Positions 40,906 through 43,900 of a stretch of DNA of 64,000 nt are shown here, piece after piece. The notes below the pieces were generated by a model. That model did not search any database. It saw nothing but the letters and a program-made list of their open reading frames with translations, and was not told the origin of the DNA. Source of the DNA: Corallococcus coralloides (GTDB lineage: Bacteria; Myxococcota; Myxococcia; Myxococcales; Myxococcaceae); the NCBI RefSeq assembly GCF_044792175.1, contig NZ_CP172866.1; one strand, given 5' to 3'. Numbering within the stretch: position 1 is the stretch's first letter; every line of letters begins with the position of its first letter. Position numbers and translations under genes: made by a program.

Positions 40906-43900
40906 TCACGCGCTGGCCAGGAGCGGCGCGGCGAGCGAGTCGGTGCCGAACTCCACCACCTGCACCGTGAATGAGGTGGTCACCGCCTGGGCGTTGCCCA
41001 CGCCGTTGCTGACGGACAGCGTGTACCGCGTCGCGGGCGTGAGCGGCAGCGTGGACGGCGCGTTCGGCGGCTCGCTGATGGCCCCCGTCGAGGTGTCGAG
41101 CACCAGCCAGGAGGGCAGCACCGGCGTGATGGACCACGTCTTGGGCTGGCTCCCCGGCTGCGTCAGCACCGGGTTGAACACCTGCCCCTGCGAGAACGTG
41201 TACAGCATGATGTCGCCCATGGTGAGGCCCGCCGGCACCATGGGGACCTGCGTCACCGTCCAGGTGCCTCCGGACGCCGAGATCACCGCCGTCTGGCCAT
41301 TCCATGAGAGCCATTGCCCGGAGGTGCCGTAGCGCTGGATGGAGAACGACCCGGACGAGAAGAACTGGCCGTCCCGGGCGGGGCTCGCCTTGAGCACGAC
41401 GCTCCAGAGCTGGGTGCCGTAGTTCGAGTCGGTCGACGCGAGCGGAGCCTTGAAGGACACGCTGTTGTCGCTGTTGGCGGTGAGCGCCATCAGCGTGGGC
41501 GAGCCCGACGCGCCGCCGACCAGCGCGTTGATCACCGTCTGTCCCGTCCCGTTGGTGCTGGCGAAGAACACGGTGTCGTAGCTGTAGTCATTCGACGCCA
41601 GGGAGCCGAGCGCCCCGTTCGCGCCCACCTTCAACACCGCCCCATTGCCGTTGGGGATGGAGAGCGTCAACCCCAGCCGCTGCGGCTCGCCTTGCTGCAC
41701 GTACCCGTTGAAGTAGTCGATCTCCGTCTTGTATTGCATGAAGAACCCGGCCGGCTTGGCGTAGTCCTGTCCGAACTGCTGGACCGGGTTCAGGTGCGGC
41801 CTGAGGGCCAGGTAGAGCAGGATGACCACCCCGGCCACCGCGGCCATGATGCCCAGGATGCTCAGCACCGAGCAGAGGGTCGTCACCGCGAGCCCGCCGA
41901 TGGCCTCGATGCCGGCCGCGCCGAGCGCCCAACTGCCCGCGGTGGCGAGCAGGTCCAGCCCGCTGGCGGCCACGAGCAGCCAGTCTCCCGCGGCCTCCAG
42001 CGATGACTGCGCATGGAGCGCGATGAGGATGCCGGTGACGAGGTTGATGATCGCGAACGCCGCCCCCAGCCGGGTGGCGACGAACTCGTCCAGGTTCTTG
42101 CCGAAGACCTTCGTGACGAGCGAGCTGTCCTCCTCGGCCGTCTCCGAGAACAGGGTGCCGAACATCTCGGAGGGGTACTCCTCGATGCTGCCGTCGTTCA
42201 CCAGCCACTTCTGGAAGCCGCTCTGGAGCCGCGCGTCGGCCTGCGACATCAGGTCGCTGGAGAAGAGCGGCCGGATGTTGTCCCAGAGCGTCGCGTCGGT
42301 GTCCCACACCGCCTCGAGCGCCACCCCGCGCTTGAGGATGCTGCTGGTGGCCTGGATGGCGAACGACGCCGCGTTGCTGACCAGCGCCGTCCTCTGCGTG
42401 GGGGACAGCTCGCTCCAGCCGAGCGCCCCGTAGACGATGCCCATCACCCCCACGGCGCCCAGCCCCATGCAGAGCAGGTTCGCTCCCAGCGTGCCAACCT
42501 TCCCGGTCACGGACTCCGCCATCAGCGGCGCGATCTGCTCCCAGCCGTAGATGCCCACCTTGCCGACCGCCGCCGCCTGCATGGTGGCGATGTACTCGGC
42601 CAACTGCGTGTCCGCGGCGAGCTTCGCGGCCTCCTGCGCCGCCTGCTGCACCTGCGGGTCCGAGCTGTTTCCGTACTGCACGGCGATCTGCGCCATGACC
42701 TGCTGGACGTCATACACGTAGTCGTCCGGGTTGGCCGAGTAGTCGAACAGCTCGGGGAGCATGTTCCCGATCTGGAACGTCTGGATGACGCTGATGTACT
42801 GCTGGGAGAAGACGTTGCTGGGGTCCAGCAGGGACAGCAGGGCGACGTTGGTCTGGCATTGCCGCATGAAGGCCGAGCCGTCCAGGTCCGCCGCCTGTCC
42901 CAGGCTCATCATCTCGATGATGGTCAGCTCCTGGGGGCTGCTGATGTAACGGAAGAACGTGTATGCCCAGTAGAGGCCGTTGTTCACCGCGGTGGTGACC
43001 AGGGTGTTGACGATGTTCGTCATCGTCGTCAGCGCGGACGGGTCGATGATGGTGGCCCGCAGCTCCGCCAGCCACTTCTGCTGGTCCGCGAGGATGTATT
43101 GATTGTAGGTGGACCGGTTCTGCTGCTGGTCTGCCAGGTATTGCGGCAGCGCCGCGTTCTGCGGCTGGTTGGACCACTCGTGCGAGTACATCGCCGTGGA
43201 CTGCACCTGGAACACGGGGCTGGCGGCGGTCTGGGTCTTCAGCCAGTTCTGCGCGCGCAGGGCGTTGAGCTGGTCCGCGCCGTCCTCGTTGAACGTGGAG
43301 AGGACGTTGGTGAGGTAGGCGGTGGCGAGCGACTGGTACCACTGGCTGGGATTGGTCCCCATGCTCGCGACGGTCTGCAGCCAGGACGGAAGCACCGGCT
43401 GCCCGGTCCCGAAGTACGTCTGCCGGAGGTTTGACGGCAGGTAATACATCATCACCTGGTTGAAATCACTCATCGTGGCCTGCTGCACCACGTCCGCCCA
43501 GACGTTGTTGGAGAACGCGAACTGGGTCATGTTCGCGAGCGTCGTCAGGTTGAGCTGCGTGTTGACCACGGCGCTGGAGGCCACCGCGGTGACGGGGTGG
43601 GCGGCGAACGCGGTCCGGTGGGCGGGCGCGGTGAGCTCCGTGGCCTGCACGCGCCGGCCGCCGCGGGGCTGGCCGGGCATCCAGGCGGAGTGGCCGTCCT
43701 GGGAGAAGTGGATGGTGCCGGATTCGGGCAGGCCGGTGAGCCGCTGCTGCTGCTGGGTCAGCCCCTCGAAGTGCAGGGTCGAGCCCCGCAGCCGCGAGGT
43801 GGGGACCTCCTCGTCCTGCACGTAGAGGCGCCCGCCGTGCACCGCGATGGGCGAACCCGCGCCGTTGAGCGTGTAGAGGCCGACGACGGACGGGTTCACC

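Follow-up and report, generated by a model that had tools for sequence, protein, structure and literature searches.

Soluble proteins with buried apolar hairpins, such as colicins, the T domain of diphtheria toxin, and members of the Bcl-2 family, are themselves membrane-inserting, and Tc toxins (TcA with TcB-TcC) and Hint-containing polymorphic toxins place a large membrane component beside a protein with an autoproteolytic module. Here, we analyzed a locus that recalls both kinds of system. It consists of genes A (47290..51141, 1283 amino acids counted from a TTG start), B (44856..47276, 806 amino acids), and C (40906..44817, 1303 amino acids according to the open reading frame [ORF] list and its translation), all on the minus strand of a 64,000-nucleotide stretch of the Corallococcus coralloides contig NZ_CP172866.1 (assembly GCF_044792175.1), to which we refer as the window. 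A and C are paralogs from an unnamed family of large proteins, and B is a soluble Hint-domain protein that accompanies large proteins of this type as a conserved partner. The large proteins share five predicted helices, H1 to H5, and the sequence pattern of these helices makes it quite probable that they sit in or insert into a membrane. More tentatively, we regard them as the functional element by which a large lectin-bearing protein penetrates membranes and not as a passive anchor.

Apolar helices H1 to H5 and their conservation

An earlier note on the window had flagged a block of consecutive hydrophobic, Gly/Ala-rich helices in C and at the equivalent place in A, and had proposed that it might be a membrane-insertion or pore-forming region. 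The three peptides quoted from C were found where the note had placed them (residues 920 to 937, nucleotides 42007-42060; residues 947 to 975, 41893-41979; and residues 976 to 1005, 41803-41892), and the description of their composition proved accurate: glycine and alanine make up 34% of the block versus 20% of the whole protein, isoleucine, leucine, valine, phenylalanine, and methionine 41% versus 27%, and charged residues 5% versus 11%. The block is also helical as described, with AlphaFold/DSSP helices at residues 909 to 934, 939 to 967, and 975 to 1004 of C. Other parts of the description had to be adjusted. The block of A, which maps by alignment to residues 888 to 990 (48172..48480, minus strand; 48% identity to the C block; hydropathy maxima at residues 896 to 924 and 957 to 992), had been called closely matching; the two blocks are indeed 46 to 48% identical, but this is barely above the whole-protein average of 41 to 42%. 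A helical domain does precede the block, but a beta-trefoil intervenes before the Ig-like tail that the note had taken to follow directly. Finally, the proposed glycine zipper stands in a relaxed form, given that the small-xxx-small pairs 918/922, 958/962, 989/993, and 992/996 are conserved but the strict GxxxGxxxG pattern is not; a helical periodicity of small residues across homologs did not reach significance.

The hydrophobic region begins upstream of the flagged block and spans residues 759 to 1005 of C, comprising all five helices. The flagged block (residues 909 to 1005 of C and ~893 to 990 of A) may therefore be the three-helix half of an all-helical membrane-insertion region of ~250 residues (residues 759 to 1005), an assignment that we put forward with reserve. 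To describe its conservation, we used an alignment of 91 homologs with identities down to ~20%, in the numbering of C; all coordinates of C given below are on the minus strand. H1 (42424..42477, residues 781 to 798) is the uniformly hydrophobic second half of a long predicted helix (residues 759 to 796). About 1% of its residues are charged, its 19-residue Kyte-Doolittle value (KD19) is ≥1.6 in 84% of the 91 homologs, and its predicted local distance difference test score (pLDDT) is 82 to 89; an amphipathic moment was not detected in H1, and the Gly-rich pattern that it has in C is poorly kept (G785 in 46% and G797 in 63%). The turn that follows holds a conserved tryptophan, W801 (88% of members), and then D/D. 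H2 (42328..42402, residues 806 to 830; pLDDT 69 to 83) is amphipathic (hydrophobic moment, P = 0.002), carries the conserved residues Gln818 and Gln822, and terminates in a conserved K-R-G, with K829 being charged in 73% and R830 in 63% of the sequences.

A variable, disordered linker (42094..42222, residues 866 to 908; pLDDT 28 to 49) with gap-rich alignment columns leads to the second group of helices. Immediately ahead of H3 lies the motif F-G-(K/R)-N-L-D-E-F (42082..42105, residues 905 to 912), in which G906 is conserved in 96%, N908 in 86%, F912 in 85%, and F905 in 81% of the sequences. H3 (42016..42069, residues 917 to 934), the first helix of the flagged block, is essentially charge-free and has a KD19 of ≥1.6 in 89% of members. 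H4 (41923..41982, residues 946 to 965) features a conserved acidic residue in the middle of the helix, D955 (D/E in 53%), and a conserved W963 (82%). H5 (41803..41886, residues 978 to 1005) is a transmembrane-grade core helix of 28 apolar residues. Its KD19 is ≥1.6 in 100% of the 91 homologs, the median Hessa sum over 19 residues is -2.2 kcal/mol, and it is transmembrane-grade in 98 to 100% of them; in C itself, the KD19 is 2.74 and the Hessa sum is ~-3. H5 also shows what is generally asked of a membrane helix, a conserved run of at least 19 uncharged apolar helical residues, and keeps small residues at position 989 (Gly in C; G/A/S in 100%, mainly Ala), A993, and G996 (96%). On the biological hydrophobicity scale, H5 alone is autonomous; H1, H3, and H4 come out as marginal, and H2 is amphipathic.

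Across the 91 homologs, 1 to 1.5% of the residues in H1, H3, and H5 are charged, and a comparable hydrophobic window occurs in the first 750 residues of just 4 of the 91 proteins. The distinction is also evident at the most variable third of positions, where H1, H3, and H5 have Kyte-Doolittle values of +1.1 to +2.2 with 3% charged residues, in contrast to -1.15 and 29% for the soluble helices. As far as the alignment can tell, apolar variable positions of this kind in H1, H3, and H5 mark helices that either face lipid or are completely buried. The insertion part of the earlier claim is supported by these conserved apolar helices, but its pore part found no matching pore domain. Column entropy is 2.04 to 2.13 in H3 to H5 versus 2.57 for residues 421 to 1195, and nothing else in the C-terminal half of these proteins is conserved as well as the block; it contains the near-invariant G996 and is bracketed by the near-invariant residues G906, P1011, and F1015, which belong to the strongest flanking motifs of that protein half. 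This conservation above the protein average, together with the flanking near-invariant motifs, suggests that H3 to H5 form a functional membrane module and not a passive anchor.

Taken on its own, the sequence of C would be less telling. Its best 19-residue Kyte-Doolittle window scores 2.74 versus 1.92 ± 0.26 in shuffled sequences, and 9 of 2000 shuffles score as high, which is a moderate significance. Given that the window has a GC content of ~70%, one might suspect an artifact of genome composition (70% GC) or a hydrophobic stretch that arose by chance. We consider the probability of this to be negligible: the block is kept in 91 homologs down to ~20% identity, among them one from Endozoicomonas (47% GC) and one on a 35%-GC contig (L007), the latter of which excludes a GC-driven artifact, and it is both conserved above the protein average and strongly coevolving.

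Packing, topology, and proposed mode of membrane insertion

With an alignment of 10 sequences, AlphaFold was uninformative for the hydrophobic region (mean pLDDT, 54); run on residues 1 to 1195 of C with 62 diverse sequences, it gave a model with a mean pLDDT of 80 and a predicted template modeling score (pTM) of 0.73. The model starts with a beta-rich domain (43648..44688, residues ~44 to 390; pLDDT, ~90), whose sole Foldseek matches are weak ones to TbpB (E = 0.01), followed by a soluble all-helical domain (42565..43491, residues ~443 to 751) with 16 predicted helices and a pLDDT of ~90. Behind H5, a segment of residues 1006 to 1030 (41728..41802) begins with K/R and continues with P1011, F1015, A1020, and G1024. 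Its residues 1011 to 1030 have a pLDDT of 93 to 94, and a coupling between positions 517 and 1020 connects it to the soluble helical domain, on which, according to the model, it is probably docked.

Mean-field direct-coupling analysis of 127 to 137 family sequences (effective number, ~119 to 128) added information on the helices themselves. Couplings between H3 and H4 are enriched tenfold, those between H4 and H5 number 6 versus 1.1 expected (e.g., 947-995 and 954-992), and H3 and H5 are coupled in a parallel manner (923-987 and 922-980), indicating that these three helices pack as an antiparallel up-down-up unit. H1 is not coupled with any other helix. Between H3 to H5 and the soluble domain, 35 couplings were found versus ~26 expected, which is not a significant enrichment and was treated as noise level. 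A coupled clique of positions 510/576/577/588/702/722/773, obtained in the analysis of residues 421 to 1039, looks like a subfamily or gap artifact and was set aside.

These data bear on the possibility that H1 to H5 never touch a membrane and instead make up the hydrophobic interior of a large soluble helical domain. AlphaFold does set the long helix that ends in H1, together with H2, contiguous with the soluble helical domain at a confidence of 69 to 89, the post-H5 segment docks on the same domain, and a domain of 16 helices is big enough to shield some apolar helices. Yet three to four helices of 18 to 28 residues, in which 1 to 4% of the residues are charged and even the variable positions stay apolar, are far from what the soluble helices of this protein show. 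The couplings of H3 to H5 with the soluble domain remain near expectation, in contrast to the tenfold enrichment between H3 and H4, and the low AlphaFold confidence in H3 to H5 does not describe a well-packed core. Moreover, the soluble proteins with buried apolar hairpins named at the outset insert into membranes, which counts against an entirely soluble life of these helices. We therefore judge a purely soluble core to be unlikely.

A stronger competitor takes A and C to be polytopic proteins that reside constitutively in the inner membrane, with a cytoplasmic N-terminal part, and in which H1 (with or without H2) and H3 to H5 would be stable transmembrane helices inserted via the signal recognition particle, Sec, and YidC (or, in animals, via the translocon of the endoplasmic reticulum). 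The block would then be a membrane-resident channel, sensor, or scaffold domain and not a toxin pore. Both the transmembrane-grade H5 and the nearly charge-free H1 and H3 in almost all homologs agree with this idea, apolar variable positions are expected of lipid-facing surfaces, and an uncoupled H1 is expected of a lipid-exposed helix. The loop charges point in the same direction, with lysine and arginine being enriched before H1 (net charge, +1.3), after H2 (+1.4), and before H3 (+1.3) and depleted in the H3-H4 turn (-2.0) and in the H4-H5 loop (0.05 K+R per sequence). In addition, a missing signal peptide is normal for membrane proteins with a cytoplasmic N terminus, the scheme works in bacteria and animals alike, and no secretion genes lie nearby. 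The difficulty is the topology. With five crossings, the post-H5 segment would end up across the membrane from the helical domain to which it seems docked (pLDDT, 93 to 94; coupling 517-1020), and versions with four crossings either breach the positive-inside pattern or keep the lectin and Ig-like domains cytoplasmic. Because post-H5 docking is combined with an up-down-up unit, a simple positive-inside topology does not fit; with positive-inside counts, packing, and docking being mutually inconsistent for simple models of four or five crossings, no fixed topology emerged. The marginal H1, H3, and H4, the amphipathic H2 with its conserved glutamines, and the absence of a confident transmembrane bundle from the AlphaFold model likewise sit poorly with stable transmembrane helices. 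Both for the proteins as a whole and for the block, we hold the constitutive arrangement to be possible but somewhat doubtful.

The domains that follow the helices are of interest in this context. Residues 1048 to 1192 form a twelve- to thirteen-stranded beta domain (pLDDT, ~90) with the fold of a beta-trefoil of the ricin-B/FGF/fascin-like type (41242..41685, residues ~1045 to 1192). No Pfam trefoil model matched C or A themselves, which hold one conserved T-Q-x-W (residues 1135 to 1138) in place of (QxW)3. In two homologs, subthreshold matches to RicinB_lectin_2 (24.5 bits; cutoff, 25.6) and Fascin (21.9 bits; cutoff, 23.1) fall in the same region, which placed the trefoil at residues 1030 to 1195. 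Toxin lectin modules account for many of its top structural matches (botulinum HA33, MTX, BinAB, Cry35/Tpp, and CEL-III). The protein ends with an Ig-like domain of the He_PIG type (40948..41220, residues ~1200 to 1290), which obtained Ig/cadherin-like Foldseek matches and scores of 13.9 to 15.5 bits in C and A for He_PIG (PF05345; cutoff, 24 bits), compared with 29.9 bits in the family member P0109. Apart from this, C has a chance-level match to MenC_N (14.4 bits; cutoff, 27.3), and neither A nor C has an above-threshold match among the curated families of Pfam, NCBIfam, and PADLOC.

From these observations, we lean towards a conditional, toxin-like insertion of H1 to H5 over the constitutive variant, although we do so tentatively. 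Several findings argue in this direction: the large proteins have no signal peptide and present their first apolar segment after 780 soluble residues; H5 alone is autonomous, the other helices being marginal or amphipathic; the turns are acidic or neutral and nearly without lysine and arginine; post-H5 docking and the up-down-up unit defy a simple positive-inside topology; the trefoil resembles toxin lectin modules and is followed by an Ig-like domain; the family is distributed patchily over at least six bacterial phyla and three animal lineages; and a Toxin_10 gene lies near one related locus. It is tempting to speculate that A and C would be made as soluble, signal-less cytoplasmic proteins, with their apolar helices shielded intramolecularly or through oligomerization with the paralog. 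The C-terminal beta-trefoil and Ig-like domains could then bind a target surface, upon which the H1-H2 pair and the H3-H5 unit would insert, with their acidic, Lys/Arg-free turns crossing the bilayer. H5 would be the core of the H3-H5 unit, to which the H1-H2 pair would remain tethered via the disordered linker, and the large protein would act jointly with the neighboring self-cleaving Hint protein B. Pore formation or translocation, which our data neither support nor exclude, may be considered a candidate role by analogy.

A number of observations weigh against conditional insertion. Apolar variable positions fit permanent lipid exposure at least equally well, and beta-trefoil and Ig-like folds are also known from proteins that are not toxins. 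A search with the family profile against all Protein Data Bank (PDB) sequences returned 0 matches at E ≤ 1, and no Pfam match to pore or translocation domains of the colicin, diphtheria T, ClyA, TcA, or TcdB type was obtained. Similarly, no helical pore or translocation fold appears among the structural matches listed, for which the H3-H5 part of the model was of low confidence, and the pore-forming toxins among these matches are exclusively beta-type toxins that bear a beta-trefoil. Residues 909 to 1004, i.e., H3 to H5, reach a pLDDT of just 47 to 66, and the argument from topology is partly built on couplings of moderate strength from ~119 to 128 effective sequences. Lastly, A, B, and C all lack a signal peptide, and neither a secretion signal nor secretion-system genes were found near them within the window.

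The Hint protein B and the spread of the gene pair

The three genes are tightly packed and occupy positions 40906-51141, with gaps of 13 nucleotides between A and B and 38 nucleotides between B and C. Their GC content at third codon positions is 0.91 to 0.96 (0.91 for C), indicating that they are real genes. A and C are ~42% identical from end to end, and a “hypothetical protein” of Corallococcus sp. AS-1-6 matches protein C at 100% identity. The NCBI annotation starts C at Met7, giving 1297 amino acids, and lists A as WP_404371959.1 with 1270 amino acids, its methionine start lying 13 codons downstream of the TTG (51102-51141). A scan for promoters and terminators yielded no candidate exceeding shuffle expectation.

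The Hint module of B (45822..46319, minus strand; residues ~320 to 485) is recognized by Cys320 in S-C-F and by T-x-T-H-P-F at residues 379 to 384, that is, by the nucleophilic cysteine and the block-B T-x-x-H of this superfamily. Compared with 21 homologs, C320 is nearly invariant and T379, T381, H382, and P383 are invariant. Matches to Hint-family Pfam models at residues 318 to 384 (E = 8e-5 to 4e-3) stay below the cutoff in B, and Hint families are on record for homologs; against PDB sequences, B gave weak intein matches and nothing else. Its conserved residues characterize B as a putative self-cleaving protein of the Hedgehog/intein type. No hydrophobic window comparable to those of the large proteins was found in it. 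Directly ahead of Cys320 stands the motif E-E-N-S-F-E-F-T-A-x-x-Q-P-G, and the N-terminal domain (residues 40 to 319, ~46320-47160) displays invariant W106, C115-Q116, N142, and W210 and near-invariant H215/W216/K218. The cysteine/histidine pair could make this domain a candidate enzyme, papain-like or deamidase-like; it had no family or structure match.

A word-indexed search implied a tiny family of large proteins, but an exhaustive profile search gave far more members, with 2109 hits at E < 1e-3; the 292 that reach E < 1e-30 still include unrelated Ig-repeat proteins. A further word-indexed homolog search with the family profile brought no useful additions. Clustered at 50% identity, the family comprises well over 100 near-full-length clusters (~1200 to 1340 amino acids). 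Bacterial members occur in at least six phyla (Myxococcota, Actinomycetota, Pseudomonadota, Campylobacterota, Bacteroidota, and Cyanobacteria), and animal members were found in the sponge Ephydatia muelleri, the hemichordate Ptychodera flava, and the amphioxus Branchiostoma. Homologs of B are annotated in Branchiostoma spp. as well (33 to 35% identity); the animal or B-type homologs noted are proteins P0021-P0023, P0025, P0047, P0090, and P0198/P0199. The presence of full-length animal homologs of both genes suggests that the pair was either transferred between bacteria and animals or inherited from an ancient common source. There is no Pfam or NCBIfam model for the large proteins, their names in the source databases are all “hypothetical” or “uncharacterized,” and the literature that we searched holds no description of the family or of the gene pair.

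The gene for the large protein nearly always adjoins a gene for a Hint protein of ~800 residues. Such neighbors are found in Amycolatopsis (L001), Pseudomonas soli (L003), Endozoicomonas (L004), the metagenomic loci L002, L005, and L008, and L007. The arrangement of a Hint gene between two large genes recurs in the metagenomic locus L008 (6168-16201) and in Endozoicomonas (950-9734), and two diverged large paralogs flanking a Hint gene may form a hetero-oligomer. In L002 (2949-13888), a frameshifted Hint gene is followed by two large genes. A 1294-residue gene downstream in L006 was considered as a further member of the large-protein family and ruled out by BLAST. In one protein from a JGI metagenome (P0039, 2214 amino acids), a large protein (residues 1 to 1340) and a Hint motif (residues 1704 to 1771) are apparently fused, which supports a functional link and would place B in the same compartment as the C terminus of the large protein.

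In L007, the large gene (5612-9313, minus strand) and the Hint gene (10001-12325, plus strand) are divergent neighbors with uninterrupted ORFs. This contig of 1.86 Mb and 35% GC has sparse gene calls and Pfam families of a eukaryotic type (TMTC and NGP1NT), and the closest cluster of its large protein includes proteins from the sponge Ephydatia muelleri; it is probably part of an animal genome. In L005, a gene (1-803, minus strand) that matches the Pfam models Vps62 and Toxin_10 (Bin-like pesticidal toxin) lies ~5 kb from the large-Hint pair, beside a transposase.

Around A, B, and C, the window contains housekeeping genes (ornithine cyclodeaminase, dihydroorotate dehydrogenase, adenosine deaminase, Smr, a glycosyltransferase, and Wzy). 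Farther away, at 26808-32018 on the minus strand, an ORF of 1736 amino acids contains an M36 fungalysin metallopeptidase domain, a PA domain, and five repeats of the PKD/K319L-like type. Its product, a large secreted protease of a sort that is typical for predatory myxobacteria, has no relation to A-B-C.

Significance and comparison with known systems

Taken together, A-B-C looks like an uncharacterized, widespread two-component module of a toxin-like or conflict type, from a family that is large yet undescribed and whose pairing with a Hint protein is widespread over bacteria and animals. If the helices insert into target membranes, they would constitute a new alpha-helical membrane-attack module, together with a new use of Hint autoprocessing and a further bacterial conflict module that is common to animals. 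If they instead form a constitutive membrane domain, the proteins would still represent a membrane protein family that is new, has been transferred widely, and has a defined functional core. At the far end of what the data allow, and improbable as we consider it, the large protein and its Hint partner might be an undescribed, horizontally mobile two-component membrane-attack system of bacteria and animals, which would be lectin targeted, use H1-H2 and H3-H5 as a pore or translocon, and be armed by, or deliver, the N-terminal domain released by the Hint module.

Among known membrane-active proteins, the colicin pore domain, helices TH8-TH9 of diphtheria toxin, and α5-α6 of the Bcl-2 family are closest to the large proteins in that an uncharged helical hairpin or three-helix unit lies within a larger soluble helical region, with acidic, Lys/Arg-poor turns, marginal or amphipathic neighbor helices, and no signal peptide. 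They differ from C, a protein of 1,300 residues, in their flanking domains, and no sequence or structure match connects them with it. The resemblance, which is one of composition and draws on general knowledge, would therefore be a functional analogy rather than homology. Toxins that bear a lectin (CEL-III, LSLa, BinAB/Tpp [Toxin_10], Cry35, MTX, and Vibrio vulnificus cytolysin) have the lectin fold alone in common with C; they are beta-barrel pores or enzymes, whereas the candidate membrane module of C is alpha-helical.

With Tc toxins and Hint polymorphic toxins, the locus shares a large putative membrane component beside a protein with an autoproteolytic module and an operon-like layout with duplicated large subunits. 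In contrast to these systems, A-B-C has no RHS/YD repeats, no Pfam matches of the TcA-like or TcdB-pore type, and no PT-HINT match. Furthermore, the Hint module of B is not placed immediately ahead of a C-terminal toxin tip; it is found in the middle of the protein, between an N-terminal and a C-terminal domain, as in Hedgehog and Hog proteins. B does not have the Hedgehog signaling domain or a signal peptide, and its C-terminal domain of ~320 residues shows no relation to the sterol-recognition region. Nevertheless, it is like Hedgehog and Hog proteins in its catalytic cysteine within (S/G)-C-F, in the invariant T-x-x-H, in having animal homologs, and in the N-terminal domain of ~320 residues that precedes the Hint module and is predicted to be released.

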